Positions 1 through 11,036 of a DNA stretch of 24,630 bases are shown piece after piece. The DNA is taken from NCBI GenBank assembly GCA_963796685.1, contig CAWCMR010000024.1:1-24630 (forward strand), in the 5' to 3' direction. A program made the translations under genes and the position numbers. This stretch comes from an uncultured delta proteobacterium. Its GTDB lineage: Bacteria; Myxococcota_A; Polyangia; Fen-1088. The first letter of the stretch is position 1; every line of letters starts with the position of its first letter. Under the pieces are notes generated by a model. The model had not been told where the DNA came from. It made no database searches and worked only from the letters and a program-made list of their open reading frames with translations.

Positions 1-108
1 GGCGTCTATTTCATCAGAAGGAAAGGCTTCAGCGTCGATCCCCTGCCTCGGAAAGAGGCGATGAAGGATATCGTCGAAATGAAATACGATATGGGGACGG
101 AATCGTAA
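1..108 (+). CDS. Possible 3' end of a gene entering the window (GVYFIRRKGFSVDPLPRKEAMKDIVEMKYDMGTES*)
   Basis: Frame 1 is open from base 1 to TAA at 106-108 and reads like protein. It is too short to assign a function. Confidence 0.35.
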   Translation, partial: GVYFIRRKGFSVDPLPRKEAMKDIVEMKYDMGTES

Positions 109-219
109 GGCATTGCGGTTCGCCAGCTCGGAGAGGAAGATCCGACCGCCTGTCTCGCCGACGAGGTGTCCAGAAATCGACGGTAGCGCGAGGGCGACGG
201 ACAAGAACACCAATTCGAC

Positions 220-248
220 TTGCCCGTGGATGATGCGTGTTTTACATT
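220..248 (+). promoter_or_regulatory. Putative sigma70-type promoter for the leader ORF/TBDR operon
   Basis: TTGCCC (220-225), a 17-nt spacer, then TACATT (243-248); 4/6 match at each box. It lies 22 nt upstream of GTG at 271. Confidence 0.35.
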
Positions 249-270
249 TGGACGCAGAGTGCTCCCAGGC

Positions 271-702
271 GTGAACATAGGCAGGCTGCTCATACCCCGC
301 AAAGGAAGGGCGGCACGGCTTTTCGCGGCAACGCTGATCGTCGCCATGGGGGTTGCGCAGTTCTTGGCGTCGTGGCACGAGGCCACGGTTCGGCACGTGC
401 GCTGCGCAGAGCACGGCGAGGCCATCGACGTCGGAGCCTTCTCGCATCCGGGATCGGCTCCAGCGCGGTACCGGGCAGCCGGTACGGGGATGGAGGGCGC
501 GGATAGTACCGAGACGCCGTCGCACGATCACTGCGCCATTGTCTTTGCATGCCGGGCAAGTGCGCGGGCACGGCTACTGAGGCAGACCATGCGCTTGCTG
601 CCGCCGCCGGTTGTCGTGCGGCCGGCCATCGAACCCGCCTCGCGACCTGGGCGAGCGTTCGTCCTTGCGAGCGCGCCCAAGACCTCTCCACCCGCAGGCT
701 AG
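271..702 (+). CDS. His/Cys-rich exported or membrane-targeted small protein; candidate leader (uORF) with DUF2946/CruR-like architecture
   Basis: GTG at 271 is preferred over TTG at 220, which overlaps the putative -35. Basic then hydrophobic N-terminus (RKGRAARLFAATLIVAMGVAQFLA), motifs WHEATVRHVRCAEHG and SHDHC, and a Pro-rich C-terminus ending APKTSPPAG*. It sits directly upstream of a TBDR. Confidence 0.72.
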   Translation: MNIGRLLIPRKGRAARLFAATLIVAMGVAQFLASWHEATVRHVRCAEHGEAIDVGAFSHPGSAPARYRAAGTGMEGADSTETPSHDHCAIVFACRASARARLLRQTMRLLPPPVVVRPAIEPASRPGRAFVLASAPKTSPPAG

Positions 703-711
703 CGTCCGGTC

Positions 712-750
712 CCCTCTCCTCGCGTGAGCGAGGAGAGGGCTAGGGTGAGG
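712..750 (+). repeat. REP/boxC-like palindromic element
   Basis: Perfect 12-bp stem CCCTCTCCTCGC-GTGA-GCGAGGAGAGGG (712-739) followed by CTAGGGTGAGG. This resembles the widespread CCCTCTCC...GGAGAGGG(C/T)TAGGGTGAGG repeat. Confidence 0.55.
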
Positions 751-926
751 AGAGTCATCTCTCCGTCGACGTGACGCCGTCACGCCCTTCCCCTGTTTGA
801 GCCTGTTTGACGTTGGACCCGCTCGTATTGAGCGTTGGCTTCGGGCGGCCTGCGGCAAGCGTGTATCAAGTCGCTGCCGTCGGCTGTCTGGGTGTTCCCG
901 TTCCTTGGACTTGTCGAGGAGATCCC

Positions 927-3521
927 GTGTCTTCATTTCGCGTTCCTTGTTTCCTATCAGGACTCTGCGTCTTGCTTTTGTCGGAGCCTCTCGCTCGTGC
1001 GCAGGATGGCGGAGTCCCTGCGGTCGAGCCGCCACAGGTCGTGGAAGAGCGGCAGCCCTCATACCCGTTAGAGGCCGCCGCCAGCGGCGCGCGAGGCGAT
1101 GTCGCGGTGAATGTCGAGATCGACGCGGATGGAAACGTCACCGGGGTAGGGCTCGTGCGTGGGGTGGCGCCAGCCCTGGACCGGGCTGCAATCGAAGCCG
1201 CCAGCCACTGGAGATTCAAACCGGCGCTCCGTGGCGACGTCGCGGTGGCGAGCCGCGTGCGATTGCTGTTCCACTTCGAGCCACCGGCCCCGCCGGCTGC
1301 TCCGGTACCGCCACCCAAGCAAGAGACACCTGGCAGCCCAACGGTGATTCCGTCCCCAGCGCCGACACCCCCGCCGCCGACACCAACGCAGGTGCCGACA
1401 GTGCCTGCGCCGCCAGCCGCCCTCGACGTCACGGTGCTCGGCCGCCGCCCACCCGTCAGCCGGGGCGCATCCGATTTCCAAATCCGCGTCGACCAGCTTG
1501 CCGAGGTTCCGCGCGCGAATGCCTCCGAGCTGCTCAAGCTGGCGCCTGGCATCTTGCTGACCAACGAGGGCGGCGAGGGGCACGCCGAGCAGGTGTTCAT
1601 GCGCGGCTTCGATGCGCGCGAGGGACAGGACATCGAGTTCACAGTGGGTGGCGTGCCCATCAACGAGAGCGGGAATTTGCACGGTAACGGCTACGCCGAC
1701 ACCCACTTCATCATTCCCGAATTGGTCGAGTCGCTGCGCGTGCTCGAAGGCCCCTTCAATCCGCGCCAGGGCAACTACGCGGTGGCGGGAAGCGCCGACT
1801 ACCAGCTCGGGCTCTGGCAGCGGGGACTCACCGCCCGCTACACGAGCGGGAGCTTCGGCACCCAGCGCGTGGTGGGTTTGTGGGGGCCGCCGGGCGAGAG
1901 CACGCACACCTTCGGGGCGGCCGAGATTTACAAGACGGAAGGGTTTGGTCAGAATCGGGACGCCCAACGCGCGTCGGCCATGGGCCAGTACGAAGGGCGC
2001 TTCGGAAACAACGGCAACTACCGCATTACGACCCAGGCATATGCCACGCACTTTCACTCGGCCGGCATCGTTCGCGAGGACGACTACCAGTCAGGGAAAA
2101 TGGGCTTTTTCGACAGCTACGACCTCAGCAGCTTCGCGCGCGAGCACGTGCCCGAGGGCGGAGATGCCTCGCGCTACTCGCTGGCCGCGGATCTCGAAAC
2201 CCGCGCCGGGAATACCACCTTTTCTCAGCAGATGTTCGTCATCAAGCGCGACATGCGCCTTCTCGAAAACTTCACCGGGTTCCTGCTCGATGTGCAGGAG
2301 CCGCTGCAGAGCGTACACGACCAGCGCGGCGACATGATCGACCTCGAGGTTCACGAGGTCACCATCGGAGCGCGTGGCGCCGCGCGCGTGCACGGAAACT
2401 TCCTGGGCCAACTCCAAGAGATGGAACTGGGCTATTTCGCACGCGGCGACCAGGCCGCGGGCGTGCAGCAACGCCTGGAGGCATCGACCGGCGTTCCCTA
2501 TCTGACCGACACCGATCTCGTCTCCCAGATCGGAAACATCGGTCTCTACGGCGACGCGAACCTGCGTCCTAGCCGGTGGCTCAGCTTGCGCGGCGGCGCG
2601 CGCGCCGACCTGCTCACTTACAGCGTTCTCAACAACTGCGCCGCTCAAACCGTCGCCCATCCCTCGACCACCAATCCTCCCATCGACCAGAGTTGCCTCA
2701 GCCAGCAGGATTACGGACGGCCGCGCGAGCCCAACCAGGAGACCTCCACGTCGAGCGTCGCGTTCTTGCCGCGCGCCTCGCTGATCGTCGGCCCCTTTCG
2801 CGACGTCACCTTTTCGGCCAGCTACGGCCAGGGCATTCGATCGATCGATCCCTCCTACATCACCCAGGATGTCGCGACGCCGTTCGCGCACATCGTCGCT
2901 TACGAGGCGGGGGCTGGGTACGCCGGGAATATCCGGGACACCACCGTCGTCGCGCGATCGGTCTTTTTTCAGACCGTCGTCGACAGGGATCTCATCTTCG
3001 ACCAAACCGCCGGGCGCAACGTGGTTGGCGTCGGCACCACGCGCTCCGGCTGGGTGGGAGCGTTGCGCTTGACTGGCCGTTTTTTCGACGAGTCGGCGAA
3101 CCTGACCCTGGTGCGCGCGACCTTCAACGACAACCACGAGGCGGTGGCCTACGTGCCGTCCACTGTGTTTCGTTCCGACACCGCGCTCCGCACCCTCCTG
3201 CCGTGGCGCCTGCTCGGGATGCCCGTGCACGCACGACTTAGCGGGGGCGTGACCTTCGTCGGCCAACGCCCGCTGCCCTACGGGGAGGTCAGCGACCGCA
3301 TCTTCACGGTCGACGCGTCGGCCGTCCTTTCTTGGTCGCACTACGAATTGTGGCTCAGCTCGACCAATATCCTCAACACGCAATACCGTCTGGGCGAATA
3401 CGACTACGCCTCGGACTTCCACAGCCAGCCCCAACCGACGTTGGTCCCCGAGCGTGAGTTCGCGGCCGGCGCGCCACGCGCGGTGTTCGTCAGCTTGGGC
3501 ATCAACCTGGGAGGATCGTGA
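927..3521 (+). CDS. TonB-dependent receptor with N-terminal TonB C-terminal-like domain
   Basis: GTG 927 with GAGGAG RBS at 916-921, and signal peptide ending ARA|QDGG. TonB_C-like domain (PSYPLEA...GDVAVNVEIDADGNV...LDRAAIEAASHWRFKPA), Pro-rich linker, plug (MRGFDA...HGNGYADTHFIIPELV...GPF), and a beta-barrel ending GAPRAVFVSLGINL. Confidence 0.95.
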   Translation: MSSFRVPCFLSGLCVLLLSEPLARAQDGGVPAVEPPQVVEERQPSYPLEAAASGARGDVAVNVEIDADGNVTGVGLVRGVAPALDRAAIEAASHWRFKPALRGDVAVASRVRLLFHFEPPAPPAAPVPPPKQETPGSPTVIPSPAPTPPPPTPTQVPTVPAPPAALDVTVLGRRPPVSRGASDFQIRVDQLAEVPRANASELLKLAPGILLTNEGGEGHAEQVFMRGFDAREGQDIEFTVGGVPINESGNLHGNGYADTHFIIPELVESLRVLEGPFNPRQGNYAVAGSADYQLGLWQRGLTARYTSGSFGTQRVVGLWGPPGESTHTFGAAEIYKTEGFGQNRDAQRASAMGQYEGRFGNNGNYRITTQAYATHFHSAGIVREDDYQSGKMGFFDSYDLSSFAREHVPEGGDASRYSLAADLETRAGNTTFSQQMFVIKRDMRLLENFTGFLLDVQEPLQSVHDQRGDMIDLEVHEVTIGARGAARVHGNFLGQLQEMELGYFARGDQAAGVQQRLEASTGVPYLTDTDLVSQIGNIGLYGDANLRPSRWLSLRGGARADLLTYSVLNNCAAQTVAHPSTTNPPIDQSCLSQQDYGRPREPNQETSTSSVAFLPRASLIVGPFRDVTFSASYGQGIRSIDPSYITQDVATPFAHIVAYEAGAGYAGNIRDTTVVARSVFFQTVVDRDLIFDQTAGRNVVGVGTTRSGWVGALRLTGRFFDESANLTLVRATFNDNHEAVAYVPSTVFRSDTALRTLLPWRLLGMPVHARLSGGVTFVGQRPLPYGEVSDRIFTVDASAVLSWSHYELWLSSTNILNTQYRLGEYDYASDFHSQPQPTLVPEREFAAGAPRAVFVSLGINLGGS

Positions 3522-4324
3522 TGCGGAAACGACGTCTCTGGCTTTTCTCGCTTTTGCTCGCGCCGGGCGGCCTTTCGTGCGTGGGGCAAACCGGCGGCAA
3601 CGCCATCGACTTCCCGGTGGCCGCCGCGGGACCGGCGAGCTCAATCCTCGGGCAGCCGCTTGCTTGCACCAACGACGGCAGCTGGGCCATCACGCTGACC
3701 CAGGCGACGCTGCACATCGGGGCCGTCTACCTCGACCAAAGCCAACCGATTTCGGGCGGACAAGCCACCGGCTGCTACCTCACCGGAACCTACGTCGCGC
3801 AGGAGACCTCGGCCCTCGACGTGGATCTCCTGTCGCCCGACCCGCAATGGTTTCCCGCCGACGCCCACGGCATCACCTATCCGCCGGCGCTGGTCGGCCA
3901 GGTTTGGCTGACCCATGGGGATATCAACACCATTGCCGATCGGGTCCCTGTGTTCCAGGTCGCGGGCACGGCCACGCAAGCGGCCAGCACCTATCCGTTC
4001 ACCGCCGCGCTCACCATCGGTTCGAATCGGCAGGCCTCGGGCGGCGCCGTGGCCGGGGGCGATCCCATTTGCAAGGAGCGCATCGTCTCGCCGATTCCGA
4101 CCACGGTGACCATCCAGCCGATCGGCGGGCTACTTCTGACCGTCGATCCGTGCCGCCTGTTCACCAACGTCGACTTCAGCCAGCTGGGGCCGGGCTCGAC
4201 GCCCGGCACGTACGCCTTCAGCGACGATCCGACTTCGGCGGACTACACGCAACCGAGTCGGAACCTGTACGGAAATCTGCGCAATACGGGGCCGTACACG
4301 TTCTCGTGGACCCCGAGTCCATAA
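3521..4324 (+). CDS. Uncharacterised lipoprotein, TBDR-associated
   Basis: TGATG overlap with the TBDR stop and a GGAGGA RBS. Basic N-terminus, hydrophobic core, lipobox-like GLSC, beta-rich body with four further Cys. Confidence 0.85.
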   Translation: MRKRRLWLFSLLLAPGGLSCVGQTGGNAIDFPVAAAGPASSILGQPLACTNDGSWAITLTQATLHIGAVYLDQSQPISGGQATGCYLTGTYVAQETSALDVDLLSPDPQWFPADAHGITYPPALVGQVWLTHGDINTIADRVPVFQVAGTATQAASTYPFTAALTIGSNRQASGGAVAGGDPICKERIVSPIPTTVTIQPIGGLLLTVDPCRLFTNVDFSQLGPGSTPGTYAFSDDPTSADYTQPSRNLYGNLRNTGPYTFSWTPSP

Positions 4325-4345
4325 GCACAGAAGGAGATGAAAGAA

Positions 4346-5698
4346 ATGACAAAGAGAGATCAGAGAATGCGAACCAAGACCTTGATGATCGGAGCGGTCG
4401 CCGTCGTCGCCGCCGGGTTGGGAGGCTGTGGGAGCAGCAGCTCGACGCCGGGCGCGGGTGGGGCGACCACGGCCGGCGGTGCGACCGACGCAGGCGGGTC
4501 CGCCAATGCTGACGGCGCCACCGGCGCGGGCGGATCGGGCGTCACGGGCTTCACACCGCCCGTGGATCCAGGCCCGGGCGGAATTCTCTTCGCGGCCTCG
4601 GGCGAGGTTCTTGCGCTCACGGGCTACGCCTTTCCGCCCGTGAACGATGGCGATCCCGCCTTCGTGGACGGTTGGCAGGTAAGTTTCACGCGCCTGCTCG
4701 TGACCATCGACAAGATCGTCTTGTCGAGCAACCCGGACGTCAGTCCCGGCAACCAGGCGCTCACCGGGCCGGCGCCCGGCAGCGTGGGCGGCGGGCTGGT
4801 CGCCGAGGTTGACGGGCCCTGGGCGGTCGACCTCGCTCACGGCGATCCCAGCTACCTTCCCGGCAAAGGCGGACCGGGCGAAGAAGCGGTGCCCATCGTG
4901 GCGCTCAGCACCCAGAACAAGAACGGCAACAAGCCGTTCGCCACCGACGGCACCCGCTACGCGTTTGGGTTCGATGTGGTGCCCGCGAGTGCGAGCGCGC
5001 TCAAGGTGAATCTCGATAGCGCGGCCATGTCCGACTACCAGCAAATGGTTGCCGACGGTTGCGCCGTGCTTTACGTCGGAACCGCCACCTTCAAAGGCGG
5101 TACGGTTCCGGGACACACGGATTGCAATAGCGGCATTTACGCCACATGGCCGACCACGGTGAACTTTCATCTCTGCTTCAAGTCGCCGACCACCTACGGG
5201 AACTGCCAAAATCCCGACAACGATCCGGCGCAGGCCTTCCCCGGCGAAGAACACGAGCGCGGCATTGCGTTCCTGGCCAGCCAATCGGTCATCGGGCAAG
5301 TCACCATTCACACCGATCACCCGTTCTGGGACAGCGTGCTCCACGACTCGCCCATGCACTTCGATCAGTTCGCCGCGCGCGTGGCCGGCCAACTGGACGC
5401 GGGCGTGCCCACGGTGACGCTACCAATGACCCAGGGGGTGGACTACACCGCGTACACGGATGTGCTCGGCAATCATCTCGACTGGCGCTACTGCATGGAT
5501 CCGCCGACCGACGTTCACCCGCAGTTCACCGGAGCCATGGCTTTCGATCCGCAAAGCGTGCCCCATGCCACCGGGAACGACCCCTCCACCGGGCTGCGCG
5601 ACTACTACGACTACGCGACCTACGACCAGAGCACACAAGGGCACCTGAACTCGGACGGGCTGTGCGCGGTCGAGCGGCACTACCCATCGCCCCAATGA
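4346..5698 (+). CDS. Uncharacterised lipoprotein with His cluster (putative metal-binding)
   Basis: AAGGAG at 4331-4336 favours ATG 4346 (alternatives 4337, 4367). Lipobox LGGC, Gly/Ala/Thr-rich tether, DGWQVSF motif, TIHTDHPFWDSVLHDSPMHFD and QGHLN. Confidence 0.88.
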   Translation: MTKRDQRMRTKTLMIGAVAVVAAGLGGCGSSSSTPGAGGATTAGGATDAGGSANADGATGAGGSGVTGFTPPVDPGPGGILFAASGEVLALTGYAFPPVNDGDPAFVDGWQVSFTRLLVTIDKIVLSSNPDVSPGNQALTGPAPGSVGGGLVAEVDGPWAVDLAHGDPSYLPGKGGPGEEAVPIVALSTQNKNGNKPFATDGTRYAFGFDVVPASASALKVNLDSAAMSDYQQMVADGCAVLYVGTATFKGGTVPGHTDCNSGIYATWPTTVNFHLCFKSPTTYGNCQNPDNDPAQAFPGEEHERGIAFLASQSVIGQVTIHTDHPFWDSVLHDSPMHFDQFAARVAGQLDAGVPTVTLPMTQGVDYTAYTDVLGNHLDWRYCMDPPTDVHPQFTGAMAFDPQSVPHATGNDPSTGLRDYYDYATYDQSTQGHLNSDGLCAVERHYPSPQ

Positions 5699-5706
5699 GG
5701 TAATCC

Positions 5707-6429
5707 TTGAGCACCATCGAAACGGTCAAGCGGATTCTGCTCGCCTCGGGAGCGGGCTGGGTCCTCTGGTTCCTTGGGGCGCTGTCGATGGCCAGCCTTG
5801 CGCTGGCCGTCGAGCGCTGGCTGTATCTGCGCCGGCGCGGCGGGGATCTCGAGAGGCTGGCGCGCGAGCTCGACGAGCACTTGTCGAGCGGCGACTTCGC
5901 CAGCGCGCGGCGCGTGCTCGAAGCCAGCTCCTCGGTGGCGGCGCGCGTGGCGGACGCGGGACTGCGTCTCGCCGAGCGTGGCACCGAGGCCGCCGAGAAA
6001 GCCATGCAAAGCGCGGCGGCGCTCGAGCGCGGTCGGCTCGAACGCTGGCTTGCCTTCTTGGCCACCGTGGGTAACAACGCGCCCTTCGTGGGGCTCTTCG
6101 GCACTGTAGTGGGCGTCATCCACGCCTTCGAGGAGCTCGGTCACTTCGCGCCCGGCCACGCCGCGGCTGCCGGCCAGGTGGCCTCGCAGGCGGTCATGTC
6201 GAGCATCGCCGAGGCCCTGGTGGCGACCGCGGTTGGCATCTTGGTCGCCTTGCCCGCGGTAGCGGCCTACAACTACTTGCAGCGGCGGGTAACGGCCTTG
6301 CTCTCCGGGACCGAGGTGCTCACCAACCTGGTGCTCGCGTACCTCGCGGATGGTGCGCGTGGGCCGCACCAGGCGCCTCGTTTGCGCGAAGTGAAGGACG
6401 TGAAGGAGGCGAAGGATGGCGGCACCTAG
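5707..6429 (+). CDS. exbB: MotA/TolQ/ExbB proton channel protein
   Basis: Motifs FLATVGNNAPFVGLFGTVVG and IAEALVATAVGILVALPA, three TM segments, TTG start with GAGG RBS. Confidence 0.93.
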   Translation: MSTIETVKRILLASGAGWVLWFLGALSMASLALAVERWLYLRRRGGDLERLARELDEHLSSGDFASARRVLEASSSVAARVADAGLRLAERGTEAAEKAMQSAAALERGRLERWLAFLATVGNNAPFVGLFGTVVGVIHAFEELGHFAPGHAAAAGQVASQAVMSSIAEALVATAVGILVALPAVAAYNYLQRRVTALLSGTEVLTNLVLAYLADGARGPHQAPRLREVKDVKEAKDGGT

Positions 6430-6838
6430 CGGACAGTCTGCGAATGGAATCATCTCGGGCATCAACGTCACCCCGCTGGTGGACGTGATGCTGGTGTTGC
6501 TGGTGATCTTCATCGTAACCGCGAAGATCATCGTGACCCCGGCGGTGCCACTCGATCTGCCGCACGCGGCCCACAGCGAAGAGGTCCAGGTCATCCTATC
6601 GGTGATCGTACCGGTACGCGGGCCGATGTTGGTCAACGGCGCCGCCCTGCCGAACGACGAGGCGCTCGAGGACAAGGCGCGCGCGGCGTTGGCCGGCGAT
6701 CGCGATCTGCGCGCGGTCATCCAAGCCGATGGCGACGTGCCCCACCGGCGTGTGATTCACGTGCTCGACCTGCTCAAGGGCGCAGGCCTGACCCGGGTGG
6801 CATTCGGTGCCCTTCCGGACGAGCAGCAGAAGCAGTGA
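6416..6838 (+). CDS. exbD: Biopolymer transporter ExbD/TolR
   Basis: INVTPLVDVMLVLLVIF with the essential Asp, and VIQADGDVPH...VIHVLDLLKGAG. Overlaps exbB. Confidence 0.93.
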   Translation: MAAPSGQSANGIISGINVTPLVDVMLVLLVIFIVTAKIIVTPAVPLDLPHAAHSEEVQVILSVIVPVRGPMLVNGAALPNDEALEDKARAALAGDRDLRAVIQADGDVPHRRVIHVLDLLKGAGLTRVAFGALPDEQQKQ

Positions 6839-7981: not shown

Positions 7982-8047
7982 TTGCAAATGAGTATCCAGA
8001 AACTCCAATCGCTTGGCTTCATCCACTCTGCTATCCCTTTGCTCGTC

Positions 8048-10163
8048 ATGACCATGCGACCTTTCTTGCGCAGAGATCTTCTCGGGCTGGTTTTCGCGGT
8101 TTGTGGGTGTCGGGCGACCCCCGCGGTGGGTCCGTCGCACCAACCCCACCCGGTGCCTTCCGCGCTCGCGGCCATTGCTGCGCCGGCCGTCGGGGATCCG
8201 GCCGCGCTCGGATTCGATCCGGCTGCAATCGACCACTCGGTCTCACCCTGCCAGGACTTCTACCAATACGCATGCGGCACCTGGCTCGCGCGCACCCCGA
8301 TTCCGCCCGATCGCCCGGCGTGGTCCCGATCCTTCTCCGCAATCCACGAACGCAACCAGAACATCCTGCACGGCATCCTCGAGGCCTACGCCGCCGGGCA
8401 GGTCAACCCGGGCGAGCCCGACGCGCATCGGGTGGGCGACTTCTACGCCTCCTGCATGGACGAGCCGGCGGTGGCCGAGGCCGGACGGAAAGCCTTGTCC
8501 GACTGGCTGGCCCGCATCGCGGCGGTCTCCAACCTCGACCAATTGGCCGTGCTCGTGCGCTGGATGCAGGACCGCGCCTTCGGTGTGTTCTTCACCTTCG
8601 GCCCGGATCAGGACTTTCGCGACGCCACGCAGATAATAGGCGAAGCCGACCAGGGCGGGCTGGGACTGCCCGATCGCGAATACTACCTGAAGCAGGATCC
8701 GGAATCGCGCAAGCTGCGCCAGGCCTACCGCGGCCACATCGTGCGCATGCTCGTCCTCGCTGGCGAGACCACGACCGCTGCCGCCGCGGACGCCGACGTC
8801 GTGCTGCAGCTCGAAACCCAGCTCGCGCAAGCCTCGATGTCGCTGGTCGACCGGCGGGATCCGGAGAACGTGTACCACCGGATCGATCGCGCCGGCCTCG
8901 AGGCGGCCGCGCCGCATTTTTCGTGGCGGGGTTACTTCGTCGGCGATCTGTCCGAGGTCCGAGCCATCAACGTGGCGGTCCCCGGTTTCTTCGTCGGGCT
9001 CAATCGCCTGCTCGAAGCCACACCTCTTGCCGAGCTTCGTGCCTATTTGCGCTGGCACTCGGTTTCCGACCACGCCATGGCCCTGGGACCGCGCTTCGTC
9101 GACGAGGCCTTCGCGTTTGACAGCCACAATCTGACCGGGGCCAAGGTCCTGCTGCCACGCTGGAAACGTTGTGCGGACGCCACCGATGCGGCCCTCGGCG
9201 AGGCGCTGGCTCAGCCCTTCGTGAAGAAGGTGTTTTCCGCCGATTCCAAGCAGCGTGCCCTGTCCATGGTGCACGACATCGAGGCCGCCTTCGCGCAGGG
9301 AGCTCGAGCAAATCACCTGGATGGACGCGCCCACGCGGGCCGCGGCCTTGGACAAGCTGCAAGCGGTGTTCGACAAGATCGGCTATCCCGAGAAATGGCG
9401 ACGCTACGATCGCGTCCACATCGACCGGCACGACTACATCGAAAACGTCCTGGCCGCGGATGCGTTCGAGAGCGAGCGCCAGGATGCGAAGATCGGCAAG
9501 CCGGTCGACCGCCAGGAATGGGCCATGACGCCCGTGACCGTCAACGCCTACTACAATTCTCAACTCAATGAGATGGTCTTTCCGGCGGGCATTCTGCAAA
9601 CCCCGTTCTTCGCCCCGAGCGCGCCCGACGCCGCCAATTACGGCGCCATCGGCATGGTGATGGGGCACGAGCTGACCCACGGGTTCGACGATGAGGGGCG
9701 CAAGTTCGACAAGAGCGGCAACCTGCGCGCGTGGTGGACCCCGCAAGTGGAACGCGCGTACGAAGAGAGAACCGCGTGCGTGGTCAGGCAATACGCCGGC
9801 TATCACGCCTACGACGAGGTCCCGATCAACGGCAAGCTCACGCTCGGTGAGAACATCGCGGACCTCGGCGGCGTCAAGCTTTCCCTGCAGGCGCTGCTCC
9901 ATCGGACGCAAGCGAATCCGGTCGCAGGGGCGGGGACCAAGGGCGATACCACGGAAGAGCAGCGCTTCTTCCTCGCTCTCGCCCAATCCTGGTGTACCAA
10001 TCGGCGGCCCGAGCTCGAGCGCAGCCTGGCCACCGTCGATCCCCATTCCCCGCCGCGTTTCCGGGTCAACGGCACGCTCAGCGACCTGCCCGCCTTTGCC
10101 TCGGCCTTTGCCTGCCCGGCCGACTCGGCGATGGTGCGGCGCGATCGTTGCAGTGTGTGGTAG
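8048..10163 (+). CDS. M13 family (neprilysin/PepO-like) zinc metallopeptidase, probable lipoprotein; one frameshift as read
   Basis: PCQDFYQYACG, GLGLPDREYY, VNAYY, HELTHGFDD, ENIADLGG and DPHSP motifs. Removing one G at 9298-9300 joins the frames as FAQELEQITWMD. Confidence 0.92.
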
Positions 10164-10225
10164 CACGCTCGGGAGTTGACGCGGGCATGTGCCGGCACCC
10201 GCACCGAAGCAGAGACTCCCCCGCG

Positions 10226-10254
10226 CTGCATGGCATGCTTGGCGTGCCATGCAG
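10226..10254 (+). promoter_or_regulatory. Inverted repeat/hairpin upstream of the ZIP gene
   Basis: CTGCATGGCA-TGC-TTG-GCG-TGCCATGCAG: 10 perfect bp plus 3 inner bp (one G-U). No U-tract; lies just 5' of GGAGG. Confidence 0.45.
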
Positions 10255-10269
10255 AAGAACGGAGGTTCG

Positions 10270-10311
10270 ATGTCCATGATCGCGGTTCATCGCTCGCGGG
10301 GCGCGCCATGA
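10270..10311 (+). CDS. Candidate 13-aa leader peptide MSMIAVHRSRGAP* coupled to the ZIP gene
   Basis: GGAGG at 10261-10265, ATG 10270 (or 10276), and TGA 10309-10311 overlapping the ZIP ATG (ATGA). It could instead be a frameshifted ZIP N-terminus. Confidence 0.3.
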   Translation: MSMIAVHRSRGAP

Positions 10312-11036
10312 GGGTTCCCTGGCTCGCCATTGCGTTGGCAGTGCTGATCGACGGGTGCGCAGGTTTGACGGGCGCGCTCTTGCCCGAAGCGTGGCTGGCC
10401 AGTCGGCGTCAAGCCCTGGTCGGTTTCGCCACCGGCGTGATCCTCGGCGTGGCCTTCCTGGACATCTTGCCCGAGGCTCTGATCAAGGGCGACGCGAAGA
10501 CGATCCTGGGCATCGCCCTGGCCAGCTTCAGCGCCACCGCGGCCTTGGAGTGGTGGCTCGGACATCGCCGCAGCCGCCACGACTCGCACACCATCTTGCC
10601 GACCATGCTGCTCGGCTCCGACGGGCTTCACAATGCCGGCGACGGTGCTGCCATCGCGGCGGCGTTCCTCGCCTCGCCCCGCCTCGGCGTGACGACCGCG
10701 CTCGCGGTGATCGTGCACGAAGTCCCGCAAGAGGTCGGCGACTACGCGATCTTGAGAAGCGCAGGGGTGAGCCGTGGGCGAGCCGTCGTCGCTCTGTCGC
10801 TGGTGCAGCTGACCGCGGGCCTGGGCGCGCTGGCCGCGATCCTGGCGGCCAGCGCCTGGACCTCCGCCACCCGAGGCGTGCTCGGCATCGCCGCGGGAAC
10901 CTTCGTGTACATCGGTGGGTCCGACCTGCTTCCCGAGCTGCTGCACGAATCCCACGACGGTCGGGCCGGCTGGCAGGCGATAGCAGGGTTCTCGGCCGGG
11001 CTTGTCGTGGCGGTGGCAAGCTCGGCGCTCGGCTAG
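10308..11036 (+). CDS. ZIP family divalent metal (Zn/Fe/Mn/Co) transporter
   Basis: GVILGVAFLDILPEA, DGLHNAGDG and VHEVPQEVGD signature helices, short His loop HRRSRHDSH, multiple TM segments. Confidence 0.92.
   Translation: MRVPWLAIALAVLIDGCAGLTGALLPEAWLASRRQALVGFATGVILGVAFLDILPEALIKGDAKTILGIALASFSATAALEWWLGHRRSRHDSHTILPTMLLGSDGLHNAGDGAAIAAAFLASPRLGVTTALAVIVHEVPQEVGDYAILRSAGVSRGRAVVALSLVQLTAGLGALAAILAASAWTSATRGVLGIAAGTFVYIGGSDLLPELLHESHDGRAGWQAIAGFSAGLVVAVASSALG

Follow-up and report, generated by a model that had tools for sequence, protein, structure and literature searches.

A small leader ORF conserved before putative metal-uptake operons of Myxococcota: a candidate nascent-chain metal sensor of the CruR/CutF kind

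Studies of nascent-chain metal sensors are limited to CruR and CutF. These two occur in Proteobacteria and respond to copper, with opposite polarity according to the portions of 10.1101/2025.02.05.636593 that treat them. Following passages of PMC9973294 and PMC9426467, a CruR/CutF-like protein can be defined by a length of <150 amino acids (aa), a signal for export, a site of the CXXC or Cys/His type, RAPP or PPP at the C-terminus, and a gene downstream that shares its strand. As described in parts of PMC9426467, a gene of the known kind is the first of a metal operon and is followed by a long spacer, and the spacing of its motifs is conserved within 1-2 residues. The same parts report for CruR that 45 residues intervene between the motifs, that the addition of five residues there abolishes regulation, and that both RA and PP of RAPP are needed. 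Two modes of output are described, Rho-dependent termination in CruR (passages of PMC9426467) and unmasking of a Shine-Dalgarno (SD) sequence in CutF (portions of 10.1101/2025.02.05.636593). CutF-like proteins with Cys, His or mixed sites, and with neighbours hinting at other metals, have already been published, as passages of PMC9973294 state. Here a leader open reading frame (ORF) of an uncultured delta proteobacterium of the phylum Myxococcota is compared with these systems. It lies at 259-702 on the plus strand of contig CAWCMR010000024.1 (assembly GCA_963796685.1), the whole of which, 24,630 nt, is called the window, and it precedes a gene for a TonB-dependent receptor (TBDR). By analogy with CruR and CutF, the ORF probably encodes a nascent-chain metal sensor that acts in cis and bears a variant of the arrest motif, the metal probably being zinc; we hold this view with moderate confidence. 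The family and its status as a positional leader are well supported; the arrest-peptide role is unproven.

On the plus strand, a frame without stop codons extends from 220 to 702 and encodes the leader protein. Translation from GTG 271 gives 143 aa and translation from GTG 259 gives 147 aa; TTG 220 is an alternative start. An initial annotation of this DNA had described a 143-aa ORF from GTG 271 with HEATVRHVRCAEHG (nt 376-417), HDHC, and an end reading APKTSPPAG, and the frame reads as described, with the SPP codons at 685-693. The start itself is probably another. When the DNA upstream is aligned across 18 loci, orthologs have ATG where the window has the in-frame GTG 259, and the protein is therefore more likely to have 147 aa than 143. 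Residue numbers below refer to the 147-aa form; numbers from the GTG 271 form are 4 lower. TTG 220 is unlikely as a start because a promoter-like element occupies 220-248. The features of the leader are as follows.

259-702, plus strand: leader ORF, 147 aa and a TAG stop, based on the ORF list, the GTG/ATG alignment and the conservation of the family.
307-387, plus strand: N-terminal hydrophobic helix, residues 17-43, with Arg/Lys before it (AlphaFold2 predicted local distance difference test, pLDDT, 96-97; hydrophobic in alignments).
376-420, plus strand: motif 1, H-x5-H-x2-C-x-E-H-G-E (HEATVRHVRCAEHGE), with H, H, C and H invariant and E/G at least 90% conserved in 31 sequences.
523-534, plus strand: motif 2, HDHC, in which C never varies and the H before it is at least 90% conserved; the Cys is 52 residues before the first Pro of PP.
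673-693, plus strand: motif 3, APKTSPP, candidate arrest motif (APK..PP in 261 of 262 relatives; SPP codons at 685-693).
694-702, plus strand: Ala-Gly tail and TAG stop (TAG at 700-702).
220-248, plus strand: promoter-like element, -35 TTGCCC (220-225), 17-nt spacer and -10 TACATT (243-248), matched in alignment by the TTGACA / TAAnTG-type hexamers that precede orthologous leaders.

Only the motifs are conserved. Among 31 aligned members, which are 23-66% identical to the window protein, nine residues are invariant (H40, H46, C49, H52, C92, P140, K141, P144, and P145) and five more are at least 90% conserved (E51, G53, H91, A139, and S143). A larger alignment of 143 sequences has a mean column identity of 16%, and eight of its columns are invariant. 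The Lys of motif 3 is invariant among the 31 sequences and at least 90% conserved among the 143, and in both sets the Ser is at least 90% conserved and PP is invariant. APK..PP is found in 261 of 262 database relatives, as APKTSPP in 177, APKNSPP in 45, and APKSSPP in 28, and 260 of these 261 also have motif 1. Translation ends soon after: the tail behind PP has one residue in 70 of the 261, two in 140, three or four in 36, and more in 15. All three stop codons are in use across the family. The initial annotation had suggested examining the conservation of HxxCxEHG, HxHC, and a terminal APKxSPP, and across the family the three motifs, the first as H-x5-H-x2-C-x-EHG, prove to be nearly invariant.

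The distance between motifs 2 and 3 is almost fixed. Counted from the HC Cys to the Pro that opens PP, it amounts to 52 residues in 185 of 256 proteins, 51 in 39, and 53 in 19 (51-53 in 243). In 64 of 71 genome-derived ORFs the Cys of HC and the Pro of APK are 47-49 residues apart, while the distance from motif 1 to HC varies from 31 to 58. The second linker is thus fixed in length and free in sequence. The codons of motif 3 differ synonymously among loci, indicating that selection acts on the peptide. Their usage is uneven: in 47 of 90 unique family ORFs CCU or CCA encodes the first Pro of PP (background 19%), the motif Thr codon is ACG in 3 of 66 (background 50%), and the motif Ser is never AGY (window 682-693). 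The strings PKTSPP, APKTSPP, and PKNSPP were not found in the bacterial literature searched.

At its N-terminus the 147-aa protein has basic residues and then a 19-residue hydrophobic stretch, which is conserved in alignments. The helix predicted here may be an export signal or an N-in/C-out membrane anchor. In many relatives [SGA]-x-[AGS] is found directly before the first invariant His, and this may be a signal-peptidase site. AlphaFold2, given the 143 sequences, returned a model without a globular fold (mean pLDDT 70; predicted template modelling score, pTM, 0.38). Helix 17-43 is confident and a small hairpin, 46-57, bears C49 and H52. Residues 61-110 have block means of pLDDT 52-61, and residues 111-130 have block means of 77-80 without secondary structure. 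A sequence search of the PDB gave three matches, all with E >0.4, and hence no relative; a search by fold, for which the query model was of low confidence, gave nothing at E≤0.001. The predicted model and the absence of PDB relatives fit a chain that is not stably globular.

The leader ORF is a real gene and more than a chance reading frame. Its in-frame GC content at third codon positions (GC3) is 0.75, compared with 0.81 for the TBDR. The TTGCCC/TACATT pair may be the leader promoter; it is below the threshold of the consensus scan, and no consensus promoter upstream of the leader reached that threshold. The -10-like TACATT ends only ~10 nt 5' of GTG 259, and no SD sequence is found before this codon. 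The leader mRNA may be leaderless or nearly so, an appearance common to several orthologs. The public sequencing runs that list the sequence are six soil-metagenome DNA rows with small shares, with no RNA run among them.

Homologs of the leader are found in 33 of 61 related genomes. A profile search detected the family in 89 of the 301 Myxococcota genomes sampled and in 60 of 209 genera. Among 1.84 billion cluster representatives, a profile search gave 4057 matches at E≤1e-3 and 2610 at E≤1e-10. A word-indexed search gave 856 family matches. Among the 120 of them listed, 'hypothetical protein' is the only name and none has a precomputed Pfam domain, which most of the listed canonical DUF2946 controls have. 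The window leader ORF itself has no Pfam or NCBIfam match at E≤1. Named records with the family are metagenome-assembled genomes (MAGs) of Polyangia, 'Myxococcales', Kofleriaceae, and Haliangiales, or carry broader labels (delta proteobacterium, Proteobacteria, and Pseudomonadota).

Three further family matches are found in the same genome, on contigs C14, C22, and C25. The C14 copy (L001, G000:C14:162984-166412) is identical to the window leader, and at least the leader and the TBDR start are duplicated near-identically; this duplication is probably assembly redundancy. The window is the whole of contig C24, and the contamination of the assembly is estimated at 6.5%. The C22 paralog (L117) is 33% identical to the window leader. 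The C25 copy (L116, G000:C25:1205435-1205839, minus strand) is divergent: SAC replaces HC, and its end reads APKTSPPVRHA.

The genes that follow the leader in the window are listed below.

927-3521, plus strand: TBDR, GTG start (Pfam TonB_C 5.6e-16, Plug 5.8e-12, TonB_dep_Rec_b-barrel 6.9e-07).
3518-4324 and 4337-5698, plus strand: two lipoprotein-like genes without a Pfam family, syntenic after the TBDR in many loci.
5707-6429, plus strand: ExbB (Pfam MotA_ExbB 6e-31).
6416-6838, plus strand: ExbD (Pfam ExbD 1.2e-23).
7982-9571 and 9255-10163, plus strand: M13 zinc-peptidase gene split over two overlapping frames, one holding Peptidase_M13_N profile positions 1-351 and the other positions 350-381 together with the catalytic domain.
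10176-11036, plus strand: ZIP-family zinc transporter (Pfam Zip 5.1e-26).

A spacer of 224 nt followed by a TBDR had been annotated, and this agrees with the spacer at 703-926, the GTG at 927, and the TonB_C, Plug, and barrel matches of the gene at 927-3521, the Plug and barrel domains being those expected of a TBDR, whose barrel has 22 strands. Its N-terminal TonB_C (window 927-1290) precedes a Pro-rich linker and the plug, a fusion common to orthologs. The split of the M13 gene is a frameshift, either real or an assembly error.

The position of the leader was counted in three partly overlapping censuses, covering the related genomes, the named MAG records, and the phylum. In the related genomes, a homolog of the window TBDR lies downstream of 18 of 32 family ORFs; of the 14 others, 8 precede a porin-like barrel (assigned partly by eye), 2 ZnuA, 1 an ABC ATPase, and 3 other ORFs. 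From the named MAG records, the census took in 41 ORFs that are followed by 300 nt of DNA or more. Going downstream from them, the gene recognised first is a TBDR in 26, the unkB lipoprotein with ExbBD in 5, and a ZnuA, ABC, or porin-like gene in 6, altogether 37 of 41; this set is biased because it was recruited with patterns from the TBDR-linked subgroup. Phylum-wide, where 28 of 29 loci had downstream DNA, a TBDR follows in 12 and a porin-like gene in 14, with ZnuA after it in 4 (26 of 28). In the window and in the censuses, the leader comes first in putative uptake operons of its own strand, and in most cases a long spacer separates it from the downstream gene. The positional check that had been proposed therefore came out in favour of the annotation, extended from TBDRs to other metal-uptake genes. 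Because the downstream partners are diverse, a regulator fits better than an accessory protein specific to one partner. Several MAG loci have two or three leaders, one of them inside the operon between the two lipoprotein genes, where a second leader copy is seen in L061, L062, L066, and L068.

The neighbours also bear on the metal. The C22 paralog is followed by a porin-like gene, a ZnuA-like ORF, and a permease-like ORF (the last two labels were read from the sequence), and at other family loci ZnuA (PF01297) was confirmed by Pfam. Distant family members carry His/Asp-rich linkers. Zinc is the probable metal, given the ZIP transporter in the window, ZnuA after paralogs, and these linkers; no copper-specific families were found adjoining the leaders examined. 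Whereas the initial annotation had left Zn, Ni, and Co as candidates, the neighbours point to zinc specifically. The porin-like outer-membrane proteins are 340-480 aa long, end in GAHGAHPF or GPHGAHSF, and are encoded between leader and ZnuA in many loci. Members are found at L117 (G000:C22, 5178-6620, minus strand), L025, L028, L031, L032, and many of L087-L115. A sub-threshold BBP2 match was the only one in Pfam, which gave no family for them. They may be zinc-related outer-membrane channels.

The mechanism that we propose is as follows. The N-terminal hydrophobic segment would steer the growing chain to the membrane or periplasm, and the ribosome would pause at K-x-S-P-P, two to three codons before the stop. 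About 30-40 residues of a nascent chain are inside the ribosome tunnel. With the ribosome paused at S143-P144-P145, C92 and H91, 52 residues back, would thus have just emerged or be at the translocon exit, and motif 1 would already be outside. The His/Cys ligands of motif 1 and HxHC would jointly bind the metal, which the neighbours suggest is zinc. Metal-dependent folding of the emerged part would then pull the chain and release the pause, an idea proposed for CruR in passages of PMC9426467. Once the pause is released, the leader would be finished and the uptake genes (TBDR, ExbBD, and ZIP) would stay off; when the metal is absent, the pause would persist and the downstream genes would be expressed. 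Since these are uptake genes, such a response would be economical. The coupling could be by Rho-dependent termination as in CruR, or by unmasking of the downstream SD sequence as in CutF/SecM. The stall, the zinc ligand, the sign of the response, and the downstream coupling are what we infer here; the gene, its family, the motifs, the fixed distance, the leading place in the operon, and the uptake genes nearby are observed.

The spacer, in which any coupling would take place, has the following features.

703-926, plus strand: leader-TBDR spacer, 224 nt; TBDR-linked spacers have 117-297 nt (17 loci with a clear SD sequence).
712-739, plus strand: 12-bp hairpin without mismatches, loop GTGA, 10 nt downstream of the stop, with a CU-rich (anti-SD-like) arm and an SD-like arm, GAGGAGAGGG.
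916-921, plus strand: TBDR SD sequence GAGGAG, conserved before the GTG/TTG starts of orthologous TBDRs.

The spacer had been annotated as structured, which is true of the window, where it folds better than shuffles (z -2.71), mostly due to the 12-bp hairpin, but not of the family. The hairpin is shared only with the closest relative, L005, and is absent from other orthologs, and spacer sequences are otherwise poorly conserved. Spacer structure is not conserved. That the hairpin is a genome-wide repeat was ruled out, as it is present only at this locus and on the duplicate contig. As a family feature, a hairpin right after the stop is weak (mean z -0.86 with mononucleotide shuffles over 92 loci, 17% below -2), and no Rfam match was found in window 1-1200. 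A semi-conserved palindromic TCCGTCGACGTGA-like motif is seen in the spacers of the window (762-776), L043, L052, L059, and L046, and a second short hairpin motif, CCGCTCGnnTTGAGCG, in those of the closest orthologs. Both are conceivable as operators or as RNA elements.

Pairing of the downstream SD sequence with the APKxSPP codons is predicted, at a probability of 0.48-0.99, for 9 of 17 TBDR-linked loci, and in 7 of the 9 no more than 2 of 30 synonymous recodings do equally well. Over 78 loci, with heuristic starts, the native motif:SD duplex averages 1.5 kcal/mol more stable than the recodings, and 27% are in the top decile. This pairing does not hold in the window (probability 0.02, percentile 0.42). 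Because the loci are interrelated and the starts heuristic, it is a lead only. A fuller account can be offered tentatively, as falling short of probable. APK[TNS]SPP would be a new, force-sensitive arrest motif and the Myxococcota family the first zinc-responsive nascent-chain sensor; the 52 residues would serve as a ruler that sets the His/Cys site just beyond the tunnel or translocon, zinc-driven folding of this site would release the stall and shut zinc-uptake operons of the outer and inner membrane, and in some loci the arrest codons would double as an anti-SD sequence, so that the stalled ribosome unmasks the start.

Several results weigh against taking the leader for a nascent-chain sensor. 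The window leader has no match to PF11162, the DUF2946 profile, even at E≤1. When the family alignment (A4) was compared by hhalign with the canonical one (A5, which is narrow, mostly Burkholderiaceae plus a few Myxococcota), E was 0.078 over 23 columns, which is not significant, with HDHC aligned to the HC of HCxxC. Homology to CruR/CutF is not established, so that the function is assigned by analogy. No arrest motif K-x-S-P-P is documented, and CruR needs both RA and PP; in place of an R-A-[PG]-P core, the window leader has K-T-S-P-P. On the side of the output, the terminator scan found no terminator-like site in the window spacer, and a C-rich spacer of the Rho type is not evident (C/G 0.92 in the window, 0.79-1.35 among the loci). 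The TBDR SD sequence is predicted to pair locally (unpaired probability 0.03) and not with the leader end, and the poorly conserved window spacer gives no clue to the coupling. No recognised uptake gene is found downstream in 4 of the 41 and 2 of the 28 loci of the censuses. Around the C25 copy GC3 is lower (0.65), and the next ORF is glycosyltransferase-like and not an uptake gene. Finally, the confident N-terminal helix and the pLDDT of 77-80 at residues 111-130 would also suit a resident membrane protein.

The relation to DUF2946 is borderline in other respects as well. PF11162 is matched at E≤0.1 by 20 of the 143 family members (best E, 1.3e-4), and every other Pfam family by two at most. 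The PF11162 cut-off was passed three times in the 301 phylum genomes: L079 and L080 are family members ending APKTSPPA, and the third is a classical CDFC...RAPPAA protein. In the 61 related genomes nothing was over the cut-off for PF11162, the weak matches being on contigs other than those of the family loci. Reciprocal HMMs score up to 10 bits, while reversed controls reach at most 0.7 and 4.7 bits. Among protein-atlas neighbours beyond the family's own clusters, PF11162 is found in 15% of members. A DUF2946 alignment seeded from the sole canonical Myxococcota protein (L081) collected only 4 matches. Searching plasmids with L081 by tblastn gave chance-level matches, one of which led to a Ralstonia record with true DUF2946 genes. 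The strongest link is the shared distance from Cys to PP, 51-52 residues: in 81 canonical DUF2946 proteins, the first Cys of CxxC is 51 (61 proteins) or 52 (18 proteins) residues before the first Pro of PP. From these comparisons, the family is a probable outlying branch of the CruR/CutF superfamily and not a demonstrated member of PF11162. The annotation had suggested a distinct family. This holds without a clear boundary only: the two members that pass PF11162, the 20 weak matches, and the same Cys-PP distance make it a borderline relative of DUF2946.

The best of the rival explanations, which we consider unlikely, is that the leader is a stable membrane-anchored or periplasmic metal-binding protein acting in trans as a zinc chaperone, buffer, or sensor, with APKxSPP as a docking, sorting, or turnover tag and with a promoter or operator of its own in the spacer. 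Besides residues 111-130 with their pLDDT of 77-80, the confidently predicted N-terminal helix with the small H/C/H hairpin after it would suit such a protein, and the six invariant or near-invariant His/Cys could form a structural metal site. The TCCGTCGACGTGA-like palindrome of several spacers could be its operator, and small non-polar C-terminal residues also suit recognition by a protease, an idea taken from the part of PMC9426467 that discusses CruR. However, no globular fold is predicted (pTM 0.38). The sequence is nearly free outside the motifs and yet the HC-PP length is fixed, which would be unusual in a folded domain; in CruR it is this property that matters. The stop follows PP by one or two codons in 210 of 261 relatives, and the leader comes first in its putative operon with a spacer behind it. 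As the partners vary (TBDR, porin-like barrel, ZnuA, ABC ATPase, and lipoprotein), a single docking partner is unlikely.

A second rival, improbable in our view, keeps a cis-acting leader of the CruR/CutF kind and changes the signal or the polarity: copper or another thiophilic metal, periplasmic redox, or export capacity would be sensed, or the metal would induce the stall, as proposed for CutF. CruR and CutF are themselves copper sensors of opposite polarity in the cited portions of the literature, the Cys/His site could bind Cu(I), and DsbA-like and DoxX-like ORFs (labels read from the sequence) lie upstream of the C22 paralog. Against a different signal stand the uptake neighbours of zinc type, ZnuA (PF01297) and ZIP (PF02535), with no copper-specific families adjoining the examined leaders; against a different polarity stands the economy of switching uptake genes off when the metal is present. 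That the leader is a chance ORF of GC-rich DNA, or an element conserved as RNA and not as protein, can practically be dismissed, for although long spurious ORFs are common in high-GC genomes and several overlap the leader on both strands, thousands of homologs with residues conserved in frame refute it, along with synonymous variation at the invariant residues, the GC3 of 0.75, and the lack of an Rfam match.

If the leader is a nascent-chain metal sensor as proposed, the principle would reach beyond copper, probably to zinc, beyond Proteobacteria to a phylum in which the family has thousands of members, and to a different arrest sequence. A function would be given to a large family of 'hypothetical proteins', and zinc-uptake operons of Myxococcota could become recognisable by their leader. 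The distance from ligand to PP, common to the family and canonical DUF2946, offers a direct test of whether co-translational metal folding pulls the chain from arrest.

Among known systems, SecM and ApdA/ApdP (R-A-G-P and R-A-P-P) share with the family what we take to be a general likeness: a basic residue 3-4 positions before the stall Pro, a small residue before Pro, an exported chain, and release by force, the last as proposed for the family. They have Arg and serve secretion-factor control, whereas the family has Lys, one more residue before PP, and metal-uptake genes, and its stalling is a candidate one. Small DUF2946-type first genes of zinc-related operons are known too. Passages of PMC4176598 report that the Zur regulon of Caulobacter includes DUF2946 genes and that CC2720 heads a zinc efflux operon, and Cupriavidus CzcI is described in part of PMC9973294 as DUF2946-type without the C-terminal proline motif. 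Like the window leader, these are small and come first; unlike it, they head zinc/cobalt/cadmium efflux and not uptake, and they have no sequence motifs in common with the family.

The window leader passes the filters for CutF-like proteins given in passages of Ozturk et al. 2023 (PMC9973294), i.e., <150 aa, PP in the last 15 residues, a signal peptide, and a same-strand neighbour within <1000 nt. Their list, as reported there, is 55% Pseudomonadota and 40% Bacteroidota when normalised by proteome (76% and 19% unnormalised). The list has 29 clusters, and Myxococcota are not named in those passages. CutF of Rhodobacter capsulatus, as partly described, has CxxxC, PPP, and a short stem-loop spacer and controls a copper-induced detoxifying oxidase, from all of which the window family differs. 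The motif:SD pairing predicted for 9 of 17 related loci, though not for the window, recalls the cutO stem-loop.

CruR of Bordetella pertussis (Bp2923) is among the closest known systems, and what the initial annotation had cited about it agrees with passages of PMC9426467. The annotation saw the same layout in the window with variant ligands and KTSPP, and the leader indeed has the small size, the N-terminal segment, the Cys/His motif, the proline end, the spacing, and the position. The two differ in the ligands, CXXC in CruR and H-x5-H-x2-C-x-EHG with HxHC in the family, and in the end, RAPP with a tail of three residues in CruR and APK[TNS]SPP with a tail of 1-2 in the family. CruR acts on copper in Proteobacteria, whereas the family, whose window member is known from its sequence alone, belongs to Myxococcota and has neighbours pointing to zinc. 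Each leader is a small first gene whose product has an export signal at the N-terminus (a putative one in the window), a motif of metal ligands, and xxPP shortly before the stop. Both have long, GC-rich spacers (162 bp in CruR, 224 in the window), and both precede a TonB-dependent transporter, which in CruR is repressed when the metal is plentiful. In the parts of the CruR description consulted here, the first ligand Cys and the first Pro of PP are at positions 90 and 141, the same distance of ~51-52 residues as in the family.

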